Origin: a bacterium
GTDB lineage: Bacteria; UBA8248
NCBI GenBank assembly: GCA_965207065.1
Contig: OZ242260.1
Coordinates: 4,288,001-4,352,000, forward strand
DNA length: 64,000 bases
Direction of reading: 5' to 3'
A program made the position numbers and the translations under genes. This document shows positions 5,639-17,124 of the stretch, one piece after another. The notes beneath the pieces were generated by a model. It was not told where the DNA came from, did not search any database, and was given only the letters and a program-made list of their open reading frames with translations. The first letter of the stretch is position 1. Each line of letters opens with the position of its first letter.

Positions 5639-6628
5639 TTGGCCAAATCCAAGCTGTTCCGAAAAGACCACCTCATCGACTCGCACGACGAAGGCATCAA
5701 GCTGCACCTGAGAGAGAAAAAACCGCGCGGCATGAAGAAGTCGGAAGCGGCCAATACCATGCTCATGGTCCACGGGCAGAGCACGCCCGCGCCCGTCGCC
5801 TTCGACTTGCCCCTGCCCGGCTACTCGTGGATGGACTTCGCCGCCGCACGCGGCTTTCACGTCTACGCCCTCTGCATCCGGGGCTACGGCCCCTCCACGC
5901 GGCCCCCTGAGATGCTGAGAAGCCCCGCCGGCCAGCCTCCGGCCGTGCGGGGAATCACCGCGGTGCGCGACATCGACGCCGCCGTCAGGTTCATCTGCGA
6001 GCAAAACGCCATAAACAAGCTGAACCTGCTCGGCTGGTCGTGGGGCACGACGACCACGGCCGCCTTCACCGCCGGAAAGCAGGCGCGCATCCGCCGCCTC
6101 GCTCTCTACGCGCCTTTTTACGCCTACGACAACCCCCAGGCGGCGGCGCTGTGGGAAGACCCCGCGCGCCCCGGACGCTGGGACCCCCGCAAGGGGGCAT
6201 GGCGCTGGGTGACTGAAAGCTACCAGCGCGAGCGCTGGGACGGGAGCATCCCCAAAGGACAGCACACGAAGTGGCGGACAGAGGCGGCTATCAAGCGCTT
6301 CTGGATCGAGCAGCAGAAATTCGACCCCGAGGGCGCCAAGCGAAGAACCCCCGCCGTCCGCGTGCCCAACGGCGCGATGGCGGACAGCTACGACCGCGCC
6401 CGCAACAAGCCGCTCTACGACGCGAGCAGAATCACCTGCCCGGTCCTGACCATCCGGGGAGACCATGACAGAAGCTCGACTGACGCCGTTTTCGCCGCCG
6501 TGTACCGCGCGCTCATAAACAGCCGGGGGAAGCGCTCGGTCACGCTGGGAGACGCCACGCACTTCGCCCAGTACGAATGGTGCCGCGAGGCCCTCTACAA
6601 CGAGGTGCAGAATTTCATCGAGGGTTGA
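5639..6628 (+). CDS. Alpha/beta fold hydrolase
   Basis: VHG oxyanion motif, RGYG, nucleophile elbow GWSWG, RGDHD acid and ATHF His. Confidence 0.85.
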   Translation: MAKSKLFRKDHLIDSHDEGIKLHLREKKPRGMKKSEAANTMLMVHGQSTPAPVAFDLPLPGYSWMDFAAARGFHVYALCIRGYGPSTRPPEMLRSPAGQPPAVRGITAVRDIDAAVRFICEQNAINKLNLLGWSWGTTTTAAFTAGKQARIRRLALYAPFYAYDNPQAAALWEDPARPGRWDPRKGAWRWVTESYQRERWDGSIPKGQHTKWRTEAAIKRFWIEQQKFDPEGAKRRTPAVRVPNGAMADSYDRARNKPLYDASRITCPVLTIRGDHDRSSTDAVFAAVYRALINSRGKRSVTLGDATHFAQYEWCREALYNEVQNFIEG

Positions 6629-6816
6629 ATCGAGGGAAACCGGCGACAAGATGCGGTTTCGTTCATCATTCCGGCGTCGGACCCGATCTGGGAGGGAGGA
6701 TTTATCACTCCCCCTTGATGGGGGAAGTATTTCATTTCTCCTTGGGGTTATTTTTGGGAATTATAAACTTAACTATGCAAATTGCTTTTAAAAAATAAAA
6801 GGATTTGCTTTCATGA

Positions 6817-7719
6817 CTAGGCTATCACCTTCGCATCACTTATGTGCAATCGTTTCACGATGCCTTTTTGTATTTCGACCTTTGCTACGACAATAAATTC
6901 AGAATGATCGTTCAGTGCTTGTGAATATATATTTTGGCGTATACCTATCGCCGGGTCTGTTATTCGACCAGTTATATGTTCACCAAAAAATTCAACATCA
7001 ACAACACAATGCCCTGTGTCGAGATTGAGTTCCCTGATCCTTACGACCCGGTATTCAGTCGCGTCTCCTACTTCTATTTCCCCTTCATCGCGTATAGCTT
7101 TTGCGTCTGATTCTGTGATTTCCGATTTTGATTCAGACTCAGAAAATTGTTCGATGGCGGAACAAGATGAACCGATGGGTTTCACAAACTCACGGGCATA
7201 AGGTCTTGTGCTTTCAGCGAGCAGTGGTATCTGTTCAGTTAATTTTTCCATTAGTGCCGCTAGATTGTCATTCGCTTTTTGGTTCGCGGCCACAAGAACT
7301 TCCATGACTTTCGCATCTTGCTCCGCTTTTTCACGAATCACATCTACAAGTTCTTTCACTATGGCCTCCTGTTCACTTGGATGAGTCCATAATTTCAATA
7401 ATGCCTCAACTATTTTACGAAATATCCAACTTAATGGTTCCTTGAACATATAAAATACAACGCCAAATTCTCCGGCCTGAGCAGGTTCAATCCCAAATTC
7501 TTGTCCGAAAGACCCCTTTTTAGGAACTTTTGACACGCAGATAAATTTGTTTTTTGCATTTGGTTTAGGAATTTCGCCGTAGTAAATATATTCGGCGATG
7601 GTGATATATAATTTCGAAGCACCGATGAGAGATTCACCATATTCTTTCGAGTCAAGAAAATGGTGATCCGCGCTCTTGCCGATATAACGAACCATGAATG
7701 GAGAAACAACTTCCACCAT
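6817..7719 (-). CDS. Hypothetical passenger protein (300 aa)
   Basis: Long ORF in AT-rich DNA; candidate promoter TTGCAT-N18-TACAAT upstream on the minus strand; central helical segment. Confidence 0.8.
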   Translation of the reverse strand: MVEVVSPFMVRYIGKSADHHFLDSKEYGESLIGASKLYITIAEYIYYGEIPKPNAKNKFICVSKVPKKGSFGQEFGIEPAQAGEFGVVFYMFKEPLSWIFRKIVEALLKLWTHPSEQEAIVKELVDVIREKAEQDAKVMEVLVAANQKANDNLAALMEKLTEQIPLLAESTRPYAREFVKPIGSSCSAIEQFSESESKSEITESDAKAIRDEGEIEVGDATEYRVVRIRELNLDTGHCVVDVEFFGEHITGRITDPAIGIRQNIYSQALNDHSEFIVVAKVEIQKGIVKRLHISDAKVIA

Positions 7720-7852
7720 CGATAAATTTTCCAGAAATGATTGCGGTATACGTTACGGACGGAGCTTTGCTTGCCGGTACGGACTGCATTGTATCTTATA
7801 CGTTGTAAGGTATGCAACACAGTAAGGAAACGATACCTTATCCCCTGCCTAA

Positions 7853-8131
7853 TCATCTACACAGTTCTCTCATTTCTTTCCTTGAAGAAAATGGTTCAAA
7901 TTCTTTATCAAAGTGCTTCGTAATGGCTCCATGTATTTTCTTTAATGAATGTTCCATATGAACATCGATGAGACTAATTTCATCTTTGATCTCAATTTCC
8001 ACTTTATCGATTTTGGATTCAAGTCTATCAAATCTTTTATCCATTTCATCCAGTTTTCGTAGAATCGCGTTCATATCTCTTTTAAGTTTCCTTATTTGTT
8101 CTTCCAGAGTCTTATTTCTATTTATACTCAT
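7853..8131 (-). CDS. Small coiled-coil passenger protein (92 aa)
   Basis: AGGAG Shine-Dalgarno before ATG; heptad pattern LRKLDEMDKRFDRLESKIDKVE. Confidence 0.7.
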   Translation of the reverse strand: MSINRNKTLEEQIRKLKRDMNAILRKLDEMDKRFDRLESKIDKVEIEIKDEISLIDVHMEHSLKKIHGAITKHFDKEFEPFSSRKEMRELCR

Positions 8132-8219
8132 TTCAAATCTCCTAAAAAGAAATTAACTTCAATCACTCCATTAATATCAATAGTTCTTCAAATAAAATAA
8201 GAATACCTTATAAAATAAC

Positions 8220-8248
8220 TTGACATTATTTATATTATTTGATATAAT
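8220..8248 (+). promoter_or_regulatory. Consensus sigma70 promoter of the transposase
   Basis: TTGACA (8220-8225), 17 bp, TATAAT (8243-8248), with extended -10 TGn. Confidence 0.8.
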
Positions 8249-8275
8249 TGTGTTATTGAATGGGAGAGGCAATCA

Positions 8276-9220
8276 ATGGCACACAAAGCACCCGGCAAAG
8301 CATTTAGAGAAGGCATTTCACTAATCGACCTTTTCAAGATGTTCCCCGATGAGGAAACTGCCACCACATGGTTTGAAGGCTTGAAGTGGGGTAAAGACCT
8401 GGAATATCTTTGTTGCCCTAGATGTGGTTGCATGGATAAGGTTAGGCCTGTTCCTTCCAAAAAACCCATGCCTTACTGGTGCGGCGATTGCCGACGCAAT
8501 TTCAGCGTAAGAACTGGAACAGTCATGGAGAAGTCAAGGATTCCCCTTCAAAAATGGGCAATCGCCATGTACTTGAATGTAACCAGTCTCAAGGGCGTTT
8601 CTTCAATGAAACTTCATCGAGACCTTGATATTTCCCAAAGGTCTGCTTGGTTCATGGGGCATAGAATCAGGGAAGCCATGAATAATGAAGGTGGAATGTT
8701 TGATGGCCCCGTAGAAATCGATGAAACTTATGTAGGTGGCTTGGAGAGAAATAAACACGGAAAGAAGAAACTCAAGGCAGGACGCGGCGCAGTAGGCAAA
8801 GCCGCCGTAGTGGGTATCAAGGAACGGAAATCAAACAAGGTTAAAGCTAAGGTAGTGGAAGATACCAAGAAAGAAACCCTGCAAGATTTCGTTAATGAGA
8901 ATGTGGTTGCAGAAGCCAAGAAATATACTGATGAAAATCGTTCATACAGGGGATTGAGCAATCACAAATCCGTCAATCACAGCATGGGCAAGTGGGTAGA
9001 CGAGATGGCCCATACAAACGGCATCGAATCCTTCTGGTCTATGTTCAAGCGGGGGTTTCATGGAACCTATCACAAGATGAGTCATAAGCATCTTCACCGC
9101 TATATCATTGAATTTAGTGAGAGACATAATCTCCGGCCAATGGATACTATTTCCCAAATGAAAACTCTTGCAGGTAACATGGACGGCAAGAGACTAACCT
9201 ACGAAGATTTGATTGCTTAG
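8276..9220 (+). CDS. IS1595-family DDE transposase
   Basis: Zn ribbon CPRCG...WCGDC, HTH (GVSSMKLHRDL), catalytic VEIDETYVGG, YTDE, HTNGIESFWS; 314 aa, intact. Confidence 0.96.
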   Translation: MAHKAPGKAFREGISLIDLFKMFPDEETATTWFEGLKWGKDLEYLCCPRCGCMDKVRPVPSKKPMPYWCGDCRRNFSVRTGTVMEKSRIPLQKWAIAMYLNVTSLKGVSSMKLHRDLDISQRSAWFMGHRIREAMNNEGGMFDGPVEIDETYVGGLERNKHGKKKLKAGRGAVGKAAVVGIKERKSNKVKAKVVEDTKKETLQDFVNENVVAEAKKYTDENRSYRGLSNHKSVNHSMGKWVDEMAHTNGIESFWSMFKRGFHGTYHKMSHKHLHRYIIEFSERHNLRPMDTISQMKTLAGNMDGKRLTYEDLIA

Positions 9221-9222
9221 AT

Positions 9223-9357
9223 ATGTCGAAAACAGAAAACGATAAGAAGAAAGAAGAACAGAAGAAGGCACGGGATTCTATCCCGTCGCATATCCATGAA
9301 GATGTGGAAGAAATAGCAAAAAAGATTCTTGGTGTTCCTGAAAGGAAGAAAAAGTAG
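9223..9357 (+). CDS. Small charged protein (44 aa) directly after the transposase
   Basis: ATG 2 nt after the transposase stop: MSKTENDKKKEEQKKARDSIPSHIHEDVEEIAKKILGVPERKKK*; below the ORF-track cutoff. Confidence 0.55.
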   Translation: MSKTENDKKKEEQKKARDSIPSHIHEDVEEIAKKILGVPERKKK

Positions 9358-9418
9358 GAATCTCCCCGTTTAATTTCATCTTGACTTTAGCATTCGACCT
9401 CACATAGCATTGATTCCA

Positions 9419-9554
9419 GCCATTACCATAGAGTTTCCCGTCTACCAAGTCGGGTCACTCGCTAAATACAACAGCCTTGTAACCCGGCGCGGGGTAGCTC
9501 CCCATGCTAAAGGTGAATAGGCGAGATTACCCCAAGCATCTCTATGGTAATGGC
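9419..9554 (+). ncRNA. Candidate structured RNA (rod-like) inside the IS
   Basis: Perfect 15-bp closing stem GCCATTACCATAGAG (9419-9433)/CTCTATGGTAATGGC (9540-9554) with nested inner helices; TTGACT-N18-TAGCAT promoter at 9381-9410. Confidence 0.5.
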
Positions 9555-9614
9555 ATGACCCGGCCTTATGGGAAGGTCGGAATTATGTTCATTCGCTGTA
9601 GAGAAACCAAAACA

Positions 9615-9848
9615 ATGAATTTAGATTCCATAATTTATTGGTTGGCCGCCAAAGATTGTCAAATTTTAGAATTTGTTGGCTTAAACAAAATTGCAACAGA
9701 TTTAGGTTGTTATCCTCTTTTCCAGTCTCGATTAGCGGCAGAATTGGACTTGTATTACTGGATGGGCGCATTGACTGGATTTGGATTAATCAGTGTTGTC
9801 TTGAGTATTTTAAGTTCCATACTCGGATTTTCAAAGAAAAAGGAATGA
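9615..9848 (+). CDS. Small membrane protein (77 aa)
   Basis: MNLDSIIYW... start chosen at ATG 9615; C-terminal hydrophobic helix followed by KKKE. Confidence 0.55.
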   Translation: MNLDSIIYWLAAKDCQILEFVGLNKIATDLGCYPLFQSRLAAELDLYYWMGALTGFGLISVVLSILSSILGFSKKKE

Positions 9849-9852
9849 ATAA

Positions 9853-10398
9853 ATGAGAAAAACAATTTTGTTCCTGATGTTCGTATCTATTGTGATGTTC
9901 TCAAGTACAAGGGTTTTATCCACCGAAAAATCTGATTCTTTCCGACAGTTCATAAATTATTTCACCACAGGAAATCCATTTAAATCTAGTGGAGGTATTG
10001 CGACAGCAAAAATCTTCAATCGAAAAAATTGTGTGGCTGGCTTTGAAGATAATAAGGGAGGCTATCTGAAAATTTATTGGAATAACATTGATGTAAATTC
10101 TATTAAAATTCAAAATAAATTTCGAAAGCCTAATCGCTTTCTATTCGGAAGTGGTGATTCTGGAGAATGGCAGAAATATATTTCGTTTTCTGGACAACCA
10201 TATGTTGCAGATGTCGATGTTAAGAATTTTCTTTTAGCAATGAATTATGCCGCTAATGGTATTCCTAACGGACAACATTCTGCTGTATCCATACCTCTTG
10301 GCGCGCCGGATGGGATAGACGATGAACGGTTGATCAAGGCACTTAGATTACTTTATTCCAAACATTGTACTGGCTCAAAAAGAAAATCTGAATTTTGA
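9853..10398 (+). CDS. Exported hypothetical protein (181 aa)
   Basis: AAGGA SD; signal peptide MRKTILFLMFVSIVMFSS; two Cys in the mature part. Confidence 0.75.
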   Translation: MRKTILFLMFVSIVMFSSTRVLSTEKSDSFRQFINYFTTGNPFKSSGGIATAKIFNRKNCVAGFEDNKGGYLKIYWNNIDVNSIKIQNKFRKPNRFLFGSGDSGEWQKYISFSGQPYVADVDVKNFLLAMNYAANGIPNGQHSAVSIPLGAPDGIDDERLIKALRLLYSKHCTGSKRKSEF

Positions 10399-10428
10399 TA
10401 TTAGAGAATTAAAATGAGAAAGGACAAA

Positions 10429-10683
10429 TTATGCAGAAGGTGAATTTCCCCTCATTCGACGATCATACAATTGACGCTCAATTTCCCGGCATTCTTCGGG
10501 TGTCAAATCTGGAGGTTCTCCAGACCAAGAACCGAGAAACTCTAGTTCTACAGATGGTCGTGAAACCCGATCCGGAAAATGAACAACATTCGACTCCGTA
10601 TGCTTTTTCTCGTGATGCTGTGGTTTATCTGGCGGAGCAAGTGAATTCTTTTTTAGCCTCTCAGTGATATCTATTATATCCAT
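10429..10683 (-). CDS. Hypothetical protein (84 aa)
   Basis: Strong SD AAAGGAGG 5 nt upstream on the minus strand; overlaps a plus-strand ORF. Confidence 0.55.
   Translation of the reverse strand: MDIIDITERLKKNSLAPPDKPQHHEKKHTESNVVHFPDRVSRPSVELEFLGSWSGEPPDLTPEECREIERQLYDRRMRGNSPSA
10431..10667 (+). CDS. Hypothetical protein (78 aa), antiparallel to 10429-10683
   Basis: GAAAGGA SD upstream; co-oriented with 9853-10398; protein-like composition. Confidence 0.5.
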   Translation: MQKVNFPSFDDHTIDAQFPGILRVSNLEVLQTKNRETLVLQMVVKPDPENEQHSTPYAFSRDAVVYLAEQVNSFLASQ

Positions 10684-10811
10684 TTAAGCCTCCTTTCTAG
10701 TATTTATACAAGGAAGGAGTGCGTTAGATTTCTGCATAGTTAAGTTTATAATTCCCTTATTTTTTAACCCAAAGTAGCAGAGCTACGCACGACAGATCGC
10801 TATAGAATGCC

Positions 10812-11687
10812 TTACCTGCTCGCCCCGAAAGCGCCGGCGACGCCATCGCGATTGAAGGTCCCGCCCACCTCCTCGTGAGCCGGCCCATAGAAGATTCCGT
10901 GGATGCCGCCCGTATCGAAAGTTCCGTCTGACTGAACCTGAATGGGGTTCCATGTCATGTCGGAAAGCGCATCGCCCGTTTCCCGATTCGTGATGTTCGT
11001 GAAGGAAACATCCATCTGAGCGCCTGAGGGATTCGCCATGCTGAACTCAAGCGTTGCGTCTCCTTCCACGCCGTTCCCCTGCGCGCCTCCTTCGGTCGTG
11101 ATCACGCCGAGCATGACGCCGGCATAAGTGGCGTCCGCGTCGGGGTGCGAGCCAGTGGCGTTGCCGATGGAAAGCCCCGTTCCGAAATCGGCCGACGAGA
11201 TAATTCGATCGGAATATTTCCCCCAGGCCGCAAGGAAAAAGTTGTGGACCATCCAGCCGCCATATGCCGTGGCGCTGACGGTGCTGTCCTCCCCCAATGC
11301 GAAGCTGACTGAACCGCCATACACGGGGACGCCTCTCCTCGTCAGGATTGAATGCACTTCCTGTCTTAGATTTTCTATGCTGTCCGCGTCGGTAGTCTGG
11401 AGGTCATGCACGGATACGGATTCACTGATACCCGTCCTCGATTCAGTGAGCATACAGGTTGGCCCTGTGCAGTCCGATTCGAGGGTCAATTCCACAGGCG
11501 GCAGCCCCGGGACGGCCTGAATGCGAAGGTAACTGTTGCTGATGGAGAGCGCCGCATTCTCGTTCAGTACGACGCCTTCGGTGGAGCCGGTTTCCGGCAT
11601 GGTGGCGGGGGACTCTGAACTTTTATCATCGCCGCCACAACCGAAAAGAAGAATTGCCGTTAAGAGAATCGCCGGAATCCGTCCCAT
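10812..11687 (-). CDS. Surface lipoprotein with TbpB/HphA-like C-terminal beta-barrel
   Basis: Lipobox LLFGC; C-terminal GIFYGPAHEEVGGTF...GAFGA signature. Confidence 0.75.
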   Translation of the reverse strand: MGRIPAILLTAILLFGCGGDDKSSESPATMPETGSTEGVVLNENAALSISNSYLRIQAVPGLPPVELTLESDCTGPTCMLTESRTGISESVSVHDLQTTDADSIENLRQEVHSILTRRGVPVYGGSVSFALGEDSTVSATAYGGWMVHNFFLAAWGKYSDRIISSADFGTGLSIGNATGSHPDADATYAGVMLGVITTEGGAQGNGVEGDATLEFSMANPSGAQMDVSFTNITNRETGDALSDMTWNPIQVQSDGTFDTGGIHGIFYGPAHEEVGGTFNRDGVAGAFGASR

Positions 11688-11846
11688 GCCACATCCCCCT
11701 TACCGTAAGGATTCAGGCCGATGCATCGTTCGCACCGTCCGGGCTCCTTACACATCGGTATGTGATGGGCGGAAGTTTTGTTGATTCAACAGTGAATAGC
11801 AAAAAAGAAAACATCATGGCCACAAGCGGAGAAATTGCGCTATTTC

Positions 11847-12194
11847 CTACCTCCAGCGGCGCTCCTTCACCTGGGCCGCCTTGCCCTTGCGGTCTCTCAG
11901 ATAGTAGAGCTTCGCGCGGCGCACGCGGCCTTTCCGGGTAACTTCTATCTTGTCGACCCTCGGGGAATGCACCGGGAAGATGCGCTCCACACCGACGCCG
12001 TAAGAAAGCTTTCGTACGCGGAACCTCTCGCGAAGTCCGCCGCCCTGCCTGCCGATGACGACACCCTCGAATACCTGGATGCGCTCCTTGTCGCCCTCGA
12101 CGATTTTCACGTGAACGCGCACCGTATCGCCCGGCTCGAAATCGGGAACATCCTTGCGCATGCCCTCACGCTCGATTTTATCGATTATGTTCAC
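11847..12194 (-). CDS. rplS: 50S ribosomal protein L19
   Basis: [40 protein letters not shown]. Confidence 0.98.
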
Positions 12195-16476: not shown

Positions 16477-17124
16477 GGGCCTGTTGAACTCCCTTCCAGG
16501 GGTTGTTGAAAAACCCTCGCCGGGGGGTAGCGAACGCTCCCTCCCCGGTCGGGTCAAGCCCTTATTCATCAATCGCGTTTTACCCCCAACCCCCCTGTGA
16601 AGGGGTCGTTGATAAAGTCCCGATTTTGTGATTCGGCGCATGTAATCAACAGACGAGAGAGAAGAATCACTCCCCCCTTGAGGGTCGGTCTATCCTCCTC
16701 GGGTAGACCGACGAAGAGCTGAGGGCGTAAGCCCGAAAGCGATTCGGTGGGGGGTATAACTCGGAGTGGCGATAAAACGCAATTCACCCCCCACCGATTC
16801 AGCCTTCGCACAAAACGCTCGGCTTCATCGTCGGGCATTCCCCTCGGGATGCCCGACCCTCAAGGGGGGAGTGATATCTCTTTTCTCGTCGGTTGCGTCG
16901 AATCCTCATTGATTGGGACTTTTTCAACAGACCCTTGTCAGAGGGGCTTTTCTTTCACCCCCTCGTCGGGGGGTATCCGCTTTGCCCCCCTGACAAGGGG
17001 GGACAGGGGGGTTTCTTTTCCAGTCAAGAAAGGCGGACACGCAGGTCCGCCCCTACAAAGCCATCACACACCCCGGTCAACTTCATACACCGAATCACGA
17101 AACCAGGGCTTCTTCAACCGCCCC
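16477..17124. repeat. Nested MITE/REP-like inverted-repeat cluster
   Basis: GTTGA-type ends at 16477, 16499 and 16602, with inverted partners at 16915-16934 and 17105-17124. Inner perfect 23-bp inverted repeat at 16666-16688/16853-16875. Confidence 0.65.

Follow-up and report, generated by a model that had tools for sequence, protein, structure and literature searches.

The subject of this analysis is a structured RNA encoded at positions 9417-9580 of a 64,000-nucleotide (nt) stretch of a bacterial genome (UBA8248; GenBank assembly GCA_965207065.1, contig OZ242260.1); the whole of this stretch is referred to below as the window. The RNA, which we regard as the probable cis-acting leader of a transposon cargo mRNA, sits within a complete transposon of the IS1595 family, 4,001 base pairs (bp) in length (6756-10756), that also carries passenger genes. 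The DNA around the RNA forms an island of low GC content (approximately 33-46%, compared with approximately 60-70% in the surroundings), and the ends of this island are inverted repeats. The parts of the RNA, all on the + strand, are as follows.

9417..9580, + strand: structured RNA, probable leader; match to our covariance model at 9417-9567 (135.9 bits) plus a 3′ hairpin
9381..9410, + strand: sigma-70-type promoter, TTGACT at 9381-9386, an 18-nt spacer and TAGCAT at 9405-9410
9419..9433 / 9540..9554, + strand: P1, the closing stem, a perfect 15-bp inverted repeat
9437..9440, + strand: b0 (CCCG), the 5′ arm of a small hairpin, Pb, with CGGG at 9451-9454
9449..9457, + strand: segment b, GTCGGGTCA, which pairs long-range with b′ (9556-9564) or locally with b0
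9458..9462 / 9521..9525, + strand: P2, CTCGC/GCGAG
9463..9473, + strand: 5′ side of the internal loop, TAAATACAACA, nearly invariant; family consensus UGAAUACAAnA
9474..9478 / 9510..9514, + strand: P3, GCCTT/AAGGT, which encloses the apical P4
9487..9507, + strand: P4, the apical hairpin GGGG-TAGCT-CCCC
9515..9520, + strand: 3′ side of the internal loop, GAATAG, nearly invariant
9526..9539, + strand: junction J, able to base-pair with the first part of the P1 3′ arm; might correspond to the second hairpin of sRNA-Xcc1 (see below)
9556..9564, + strand: segment b′, TGACCCGGC
9560..9580, + strand: hairpin Pc, formed by b′ with the downstream segment c, and ending 4 nt before the first in-frame ATG

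A 180-nt stretch containing the RNA folds on the + strand with a free energy of -71.0 kcal/mol (z-score -5.25), and none of 200 shuffled sequences folded as well. The opposite strand also folds well (z-score -5.80), so that folding alone does not give the strand. The promoter at 9381-9410 scores 9 out of 12, which by itself is at the level of chance in this AT-rich stretch, where nine such sites were found against 7.1 ± 3.1 in shuffled sequence. With the promoter match at chance and both strands folding well, the case for the RNA rests on its homologues.

A BLAST search with this copy returned nothing in the window's genome beyond the copy itself; across 51 genomes of the same phylum it gave 15 partial matches, which fall in 8 other genomes. 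When 15 copies were aligned with MAFFT, the stems proved variable and the loops near-invariant; 82.7% of the alignment cells pair, compared with 71.2% after shuffling, none of the 500 shuffles coming near, and 27 of the 43 pairs change on both sides, whereas controls in which the pairing was slid fell to 39-49%. In P1, 16 of the 17 pairs vary on both sides yet stay paired. The covariance model, R1, was built from 14 of the 15 copies, the locus L006/L045 being excluded because its 3′ half is truncated. In 98 copies aligned to R1, 92.3% of the cells are paired, compared with 65.6% in shuffles: all 17 model pairs of P1 change on both sides (95.1% paired), P2 is 99.6% paired (with pair 51-150, for example, being CG in 65 copies, UG in 18 and UA in 15) and P3 and P4 are 83.9% and 87.3% paired, respectively, all 13 of their pairs changing on both sides. 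Approximately 30 near-invariant nucleotides lie in the loops and junctions.

The alignments also hold a helix that was outside the model. Segment b, immediately 5′ of P2, is complementary to segment b′, immediately 3′ of P1, and across the 98 copies the nine pairs of b:b′ are 90.5% paired, with five of the nine changing on both sides (one pair is CG in 47 copies, UG in 28 and UA in 19, and another GC in 52, AU in 15 and UA in 6). The same helix is 90.4% paired in the MAFFT alignment, where the changes are mostly one-sided or the pairs invariant. Because P1 and b:b′ both covary and yet cross, they would have either to form a pseudoknot or to be mutually exclusive. The partners have local alternatives as well, b′ being predicted to pair downstream with c, as hairpin Pc, in 86 of 96 distinct copies, and hairpins equivalent to Pb being present in most copies, as judged by eye. 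G-U pairs greatly outnumber A-C pairs, by 292 to 62 in the nested helices and by 156 to 37 in b:b′, and this excess identifies the + strand as the folded molecule. The + strand of the window thus encodes a structured RNA, beyond anything expected by chance.

The original prediction, made from the sequence alone, had described a rod-like RNA, and most of its elements were recovered. The promoter TTGACT-N18-TAGCAT is present, and its position is conserved in the homologues; the perfect 15-bp closing stem is present and its arms covary, as already shown by the P1 pairs in the 15-copy alignment; and a separate 3′ hairpin exists at 9560-9580. Among the inner helices, CTCGC/GCGAG, CCTT/AAGG and the apical GGGG/CCCC are present but GGGT/ACCC is not conserved, its GGGT belonging instead to the segment 9449-9457, which pairs with 9556-9564 or with 9437-9440. 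A folded RNA was therefore rightly recognized, but a rod is too simple a description, as the helices branch, and the fold is pseudoknotted or else bistable.

In the window's genome R1 detected four copies of the RNA; the three besides the window copy, which have different stem sequences, were found by the model only. Full-length relatives turned up in 24 of the 51 phylum genomes. Within the genus, 20 of the 22 other genomes contain the RNA, and a single genome can hold as many as 13 copies. There are two subtypes: type-1, which includes the window copy and has a long apical P3/P4, and type-2, which has a short hairpin instead. A second match to R1 in the window itself, at 16929-17011, is weak (16.6 bits, E = 0.061) and probably due to chance. 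For a wider search, the two invariant loop blocks were turned into an IUPAC pattern, which matched at least 120 stretches of genome contigs, and 76 of the 80 loci fetched match R1 over its full length, with scores of up to 138 bits. The other four (L056, L108, L125 and L127) have no R1 match and were set aside as chance matches to the pattern. As labelled, these wide loci come from Alpha- and Gammaproteobacteria, Acidobacteriota, Nitrospinota, Longimicrobiales, Latescibacterota and Dehalococcoidia, and five genomes from other phyla hold 12, 13, 7, 3 and 1 copies. The distribution is patchy, since in an even sample of one class only 7 of 150 further species were positive. Metagenome contigs gave 50 pattern stretches, 38 of which match R1 over the full length; the remaining 12, without an R1 match, were again discarded as chance. 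No match was found by blastn among PLSDB plasmids or phage records, and a pattern scan of viral contigs returned none.

No family reached the Rfam 15 gathering threshold in the window, in the own-genome copies or in the relatives (12 + 10 + 20), the matches returned being at chance level apart from tRNAs elsewhere in the loci. Our literature searches found no description of the RNA family, and the part of PMC11109978 that was available does not mention it. The RNA is therefore a member of a large, strongly covarying family outside Rfam 15, with well over 100 copies in at least seven phylum-level groups.

Some individual loci are worth recording. At L049, in the same genome as the window (G000:C1:4430300-4433400), a type-2 RNA at 1484-1617 lies approximately 500 nt upstream of a phage-type integrase gene (open reading frame (ORF) from 2131), and this RNA gene may border, or be the target of, an integrated element. 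At L045/L006 (G025:C1:1972641-1975783), the copy excluded from R1, the P1 3′ arm is missing and a fragment of an IS1595 transposase abuts on the opposite strand, so that the locus looks like a leader truncated by an insertion. At L109, an alphaproteobacterial locus with a transposase, a tRNA gene (1338-1422, - strand) lies approximately 40 nt upstream of the start of the leader.

One known RNA, the small RNA (sRNA) sRNA-Xcc1 (RF02221), nevertheless recurs below the threshold, in 12 of 29 distinct relative loci, with 23.2-31.8 bits against a cut-off of 53, each time over its full length and with no change of strand or register. Positions 9381-9620 of the window gave no RF02221 match at E up to 10, the window's genome none at E up to 1, the other three copies of that genome included, and five further carrier genomes contain no sRNA-Xcc1 above the threshold. 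With sub-threshold scores and no match for the window copy, the family is a distant relative of RF02221 and not a member of it. The alignment of one relative to RF02221 (E = 0.00055 in a 261-nt search) shows how the two correspond. The closing stem of sRNA-Xcc1 corresponds to b:b′, and its first hairpin to P2/P3, with AAUACAA and GAAU loops in common and ACC after the 3′ strand; the window copy, likewise, has a 9-bp closing helix of the Xcc1 type (9449-9457/9556-9564), P2, and loops of the AAUACAA/GAAU type (9463-9473 and 9515-9520). Where sRNA-Xcc1 has its second hairpin, our family has junction J and the P1 3′ arm. Complementarity between J and the P1 3′ arm of the same copy exceeds that of shuffled J (mean z-score -0.89, with 18% of sequences at rank ≤0.05), but contiguous runs of at least five pairs occur in 46 of 93 own pairs and in 730 of 1840 cross pairs, so that own pairs are barely above the control. 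The architecture of the family suggests an Xcc1-type core extended by three additions, a 5′ strand (the P1 5′ arm), b0 and c, each able to capture a strand of an Xcc1-type helix. In Xylella fastidiosa, seven copies of sRNA-Xcc1 are reported, five of them in one island, according to the part of PMC12189769 available to us.

Sigma-70-like sites with a score of 8 or more out of 12 occur in 73 of 105 distinct upstream regions of the family, compared with 64 of 560 shuffles. In 66 of the 73 promoter-bearing regions the model starts 3-7 nt beyond the end of the -10 box, and an exact TTGAC is found 32-37 nt upstream in 49 of the 105. With the -10 box at so fixed a distance, the transcript should begin at the foot of P1. 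Downstream, an ORF that satisfied our rule (ATG, a Shine-Dalgarno-like motif, at least 30 amino acids (aa) and the same strand) was called in 53 of the 76 wide loci; in 49 of these 53 it starts no more than 62 nt from the end of the model, and usually approximately 35-50 nt beyond it. The two locus sets together gave 55 distinct downstream ORFs of 60 aa or more; 45 of them have a hydrophobic N-terminus and at least 16 a lipobox, export having been called by a crude hydrophobicity heuristic of our own rather than by SignalP. Pfam gives names to 11 of 40 downstream products, namely two TbpB-type barrels, RTX repeats, an M48 peptidase with PDZ, PEGA, an outer-membrane barrel, rhodanese, YccF, DMP19 and DUF7537. 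What these products have in common looks to be location and not function.

We also considered Pc as a terminator. In the window, Pc and its T-rich tail pass a simple terminator-like scan, but for the family as a whole we rejected this role, as only 7 of 86 copies have four or more U in the next 9 nt (79 of 86 having three or fewer). A separate observation concerns a type-2 group (L050, L038-L040, L064, L082, L098 and L121), in which a 10-nt copy of the P1 3′ arm recurs approximately 65-75 nt downstream. In the L050 group, this copy overlaps the Shine-Dalgarno sequence and AUG of a six-codon ORF, and the P1 5′ arm could, to judge from the complementarity, alternatively mask the start of that ORF.

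The transposon that hosts the window copy has the following features.

6748..6755 (left) and 10757..10764 (right): target-site duplication, 8 bp, TTATTTTT, in identical copies
6756..6779 (left) and 10733..10756 (right): terminal inverted repeats, 24 nt, 100% complementary
6817..7719, - strand: passenger gene, 300 aa, DUF7946 + DUF7947 (PF25678, E = 1.2e-18; PF25679, E = 7.8e-14)
7853..8131, - strand: passenger gene, 92-aa coiled-coil protein with only weak coiled-coil family matches
8276..9220, + strand: IS1595-family DDE transposase, 314 aa (PF12762, E = 2.7e-38, 131.8 bits; cut-off 27)
9223..9357, + strand: 44-aa lysine-rich ORF, starting 2 nt past the transposase stop; no Pfam family
9585..9848, + strand: first cargo ORF behind the leader, 87 aa from the ATG at 9585 or 77 aa from the ATG at 9615
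9853..10398, + strand: second cargo ORF, 181 aa, with an N-terminal signal-peptide-like stretch; no Pfam family
10431..10667, + strand: 78-aa ORF at the right end of the element, overlapped on the opposite strand by an 84-aa ORF

The N-terminal zinc ribbon of the transposase (PF12760) scored 18.6 bits, below its cut-off of 25.4. The first cargo ORF has a hydrophobic C-terminus and no Pfam family. No reverse-transcriptase domain was found by Pfam in the eight ORFs of the element that were scanned, and there is no tRNA or tmRNA in 6000-12000. The DUF7946/DUF7947 and coiled-coil genes run divergently from the transposase gene, which is preceded, 28 nt before its start, by a perfect consensus sigma-70 promoter (8220-8248; TTGACA, 17 nt, TATAAT and an extended -10 TG), of a strength unusual for a transposase gene. 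Small ORFs sharing a C-terminal motif with the 44-aa ORF occur at two related loci, L003 and L173. The gene immediately to the right of the transposon (10812-11687, - strand) is chromosomal and codes for a lipoprotein with a lipobox followed by glycines; its N-terminus resembles those of many cargo proteins found behind the leader elsewhere.

The original prediction placed the RNA inside an IS1595 element, and the defined ends, the target duplication and the PF12762 transposase bear this out. It had further implied that the RNA is specific to IS1595, which the family does not support. A relative of the transposase lies within the flanks of 15 of the 76 wide loci and 7 of the 35 loci of the phylum, or approximately one copy in five, mostly either upstream and co-directional or downstream and convergent, whereas for approximately four in five no transposase is present within 1.2-1.5 kb, and the type-2 variant of one four-locus BLAST cluster adjoins the same upstream gene each time, with no long ORF behind it. 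As the window's genome contains only four such transposase genes in 4.48 Mb, linkage by chance would be expected in well under 1% of cases. Four further elements with the RNA inside could be delimited, 3.0-3.3 kb in length and with terminal inverted repeats; in three of them (L171, L172 and L173) the ends begin GGGAATTATATAC and the 8-bp duplications are exact, and for the fourth (L174) no target duplication could be matched. All four have the gene order transposase, RNA, exported-protein gene(s). At other loci, an end-like motif occurs approximately 55 nt upstream of the RNA, which would place the leader at the very end of those elements. One Acidobacteriota genome contains eight copies with near-identical model scores; in this assembly, L062, L066, L101, L105, L126 and L051 have a near-identical leader and lipoprotein gene, two of them with a transposase in view, and the L051 copy is broken within the P1 3′ arm. 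This cargo transposon is apparently active. Because most copies have no flanking transposase, we consider the RNA to be a frequent passenger of IS1595 elements and not a component of them.

Our preferred reading, as stated at the outset, is that 9417-9580 is a cis-acting leader. Of three options raised by the original prediction, a regulatory leader for the downstream cargo is the one that fits best, the promoter being flush with the stem, a U-tailed terminator being absent and an ORF following approximately 35-50 nt on. Driven by the promoter at 9381-9410, transcription would start at the foot of P1, and the transcript would run through the conserved core into the gene for the small membrane protein and then into that for the secreted protein. 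The leader could adopt two states: in state I, the Xcc1-type closing helix b:b′ would form and, in state II, P1 together with hairpins Pb and Pc; alternatively, P1 and b:b′ may coexist as a pseudoknot. The 5′ end would be buried in the 17-bp P1 in one state and lie within approximately 30 single-stranded nucleotides in the other, and the output might then be a change in 5′-end protection, acting on the decay or stability of the mRNA or on ribosome loading and translation. The invariant internal loop may be bound by a factor that sets the state. As the Shine-Dalgarno, anti-ribosome-binding-site and terminator tests were negative, the 5′ end is the difference that remains between the states, and our best guess is 5′-end-dependent decay or ribosome loading; any particular output is, however, much less certain than the cis-acting leader itself.

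Several points weigh against this reading. A simple translational switch was rejected, because the predicted accessibility of the Shine-Dalgarno sequence was 0.48 with b/b′ blocked and 0.46 with them free (45 leaders; 15 up and 12 down), and so was a general role of the P1 5′ strand in covering the ribosome-binding site, which gave p = 0.15 for own against cross pairs and holds in only one orthologous group. The state containing the 17-bp P1 should dominate by energy, so that a real switch would need a helper. We infer the start and end of the transcript, and its co-transcription with the ORF, from the sequence. The alignment of 98 copies was fitted to the model, which favours nested pairs, and many of the copies are related, so that the shuffle counts overstate their independence. 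An Xcc1-type second hairpin in the family is possible, the excess of complementarity described above being slight. Finally, 23 of the 76 loci have no downstream ORF by our rule, and one orthologous group, read by eye, has only a six-codon ORF nearby, so that some copies may be free-standing sRNAs.

It is this last point that leads to the principal alternative, a free-standing, trans-acting sRNA like sRNA-Xcc1, which would act on other mRNAs or sequester a protein. Its attraction lies in the kinship itself, as sRNA-Xcc1 was found as a discrete sRNA of 88 nt, with a Northern blot signal at approximately 100 nt and mapped ends (PMC2996969, in the part available), as well as in the ORF-less loci, in the type-2 variant of the four-locus cluster with no long ORF behind it, and in the terminator-like Pc and T-rich tail of the window. 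Nevertheless, we think it unlikely as an account of the family, because Pc is mostly without a U-tail (the 7 of 86 copies given above), because a same-strand ORF starts within 62 nt in nearly every locus where one was called, and because the downstream genes have export in common, which fits a linkage in cis. Even sRNA-Xcc1, in the most widespread integron cassette of Xanthomonas, lies upstream of symE and is not under the cassette promoter (bioRxiv 10.1101/2025.06.18.660453, as far as the available text goes). As symE is a toxin gene, the same arrangement could be taken to favour an RNA antitoxin or toxin-control element, of a type I-like kind, acting on the small downstream membrane protein, and the hydrophobic C-terminus of the first cargo ORF in the window agrees with this. 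The downstream genes, however, do not form a toxin family but encode diverse exported proteins of 60 to more than 380 aa, among them TbpB-like lipoproteins, proteins with RTX repeats, an M48 peptidase and an outer-membrane barrel, and the RNA lies in sense to the gene and not antisense. We found no evidence for the antitoxin that had originally been among the options, and consider it highly improbable.

Somewhat more credible than the antitoxin, although still very unlikely, is the idea that the RNA cleaves itself as a ribozyme or is processed by a nuclease, giving the cargo mRNA a standard 5′ end and insulating it from read-in from the transposase gene or the flanks. The approximately 30 near-invariant loop and junction nucleotides set among crossing helices, and the multicopy, patchy occurrence linked to mobile DNA, would suit a ribozyme, and a perfect duplex of at least 17 bp could be the target of a double-strand-specific RNase; on the other hand, no ribozyme family of Rfam matches, and an own promoter flush with P1 makes insulation from upstream less necessary. 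Less probable than either is an element acting as DNA, such as a miniature inverted-repeat transposable element (MITE), a transposase-binding site or a recombination site such as the attC of integrons, in spite of the long inverted repeat, the multiple copies and the link to a transposase. The excess of G-U over A-C marks one transcribed strand, with a promoter at a fixed distance, and the real ends of the transposon are 2.6 kb and 1.2 kb away. That the 15-bp repeats might be the ends of a MITE had been foreseen, but covarying arms are not expected of a MITE, the copies of which are near-identical, a single copy was recovered by BLAST from the genome, and no target duplication flanks 9419 or 9554; nor is there a core site of attC, either GTTRRRY or RYYYAAC, at 9410-9435 or 9540-9570. 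We give almost no credence to a retron noncoding RNA or a 6S-like RNA, analogies that were drawn originally from the long closing inverted repeat and the internal loops, which are all that speaks for them. No 6S or retron-type family of Rfam matches at E up to 10, and no reverse-transcriptase domain occurs in the eight scanned ORFs, which lie in the element. The RNA has four copies in the window's genome and as many as 13 in relatives, every one next to a different gene, and so is not single-copy as a 6S RNA would be.

The family brings together three things that had not been linked before: the mobile sRNA-Xcc1, the cargo-carrying IS1595 transposons and genes for exported proteins. The connection suggests that IS1595 cargo transposons move self-contained expression modules, consisting of a promoter, a folded leader and an exported-protein gene, between distant bacteria. 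sRNA-Xcc1 has reportedly been called trans-acting, in the title of one paper; our results suggest that Xcc1-type RNAs may instead be leaders of mobile cargo, and not classical trans-acting sRNAs. Two helices that covary and are incompatible also make a concrete model of a switch, which is testable at the bench, and if the invariant loop were to bind a ligand or a conserved protein, the family would be a new regulatory class, bearing on how host-associated bacteria deploy acquired surface proteins. In its boldest form, which we put forward as a speculation and consider unlikely, the leader would be a factor- or ligand-responsive switch that travels with transposon cargo, flipping between an Xcc1-type and a 5′-sequestered fold. 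By this means bacteria of different phyla living in a common habitat would co-ordinate the expression of surface and secreted proteins gained by horizontal transfer, and the sRNA-Xcc1 of plant pathogens would be its minimal form.

Among known systems, one comparison is with riboswitches such as c-di-GMP-I (GEMM), the leaders of which occur in multiple copies and precede varied genes for surface and secreted proteins. As in that class, our family has many copies per genome, each of them apparently the 5′ leader of a different gene and many of these genes coding for exported proteins, and its covarying stems are separated by invariant loop nucleotides, with alternative pairings close to the ORF. 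It differs in that there is no similarity to c-di-GMP-I in sequence or to its Rfam model, P1 is far longer than a typical switching helix, and neither sequestration of the Shine-Dalgarno sequence nor a terminator was detected. The ompA leader offers a second comparison, having a 5′-terminal stem-loop that stabilizes its mRNA; such stabilizers are simple hairpins. The predicted start at the foot of a long stem, with the 5′ end base-paired, is like that of the ompA leader but, unlike our family, stabilizers of the ompA type do not have a conserved core, a crossing helix or a family that extends over several phyla.

With regard to the mobile element, the window transposon resembles other insertion sequences of the IS1595 family that carry passengers, in having the DDE_Tnp_IS1595 domain, inverted repeats beginning GGGAATTAT and an 8-bp duplication, and we take it to be comparable to the 'transporter IS' of the ISNwi1-like group. 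Our literature searches found no paper on a conserved structured leader RNA ahead of IS1595 cargo. The RNA family, in contrast to such passenger elements, also occurs without any transposase nearby.

The nearest relative of the RNA remains sRNA-Xcc1, a small RNA of Xanthomonas that is carried by integrons, transposons and plasmids. Both are multicopy and both are found on mobile DNA, although the leader family rides IS1595 transposons whereas sRNA-Xcc1 is found in integron cassettes. The leader family has approximately 30-45 nt added at the 5′ end, forming the 17-bp P1 that crosses the closing helix of the Xcc1 type, it often adds the apical P4 and the 3′ hairpin Pc, and it is predicted to begin the mRNA for an exported protein. 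Taken as a whole, the feature in the window looks like a distant, 5′-extended variant of a mobile RNA that is known but little understood, found here in a new context.

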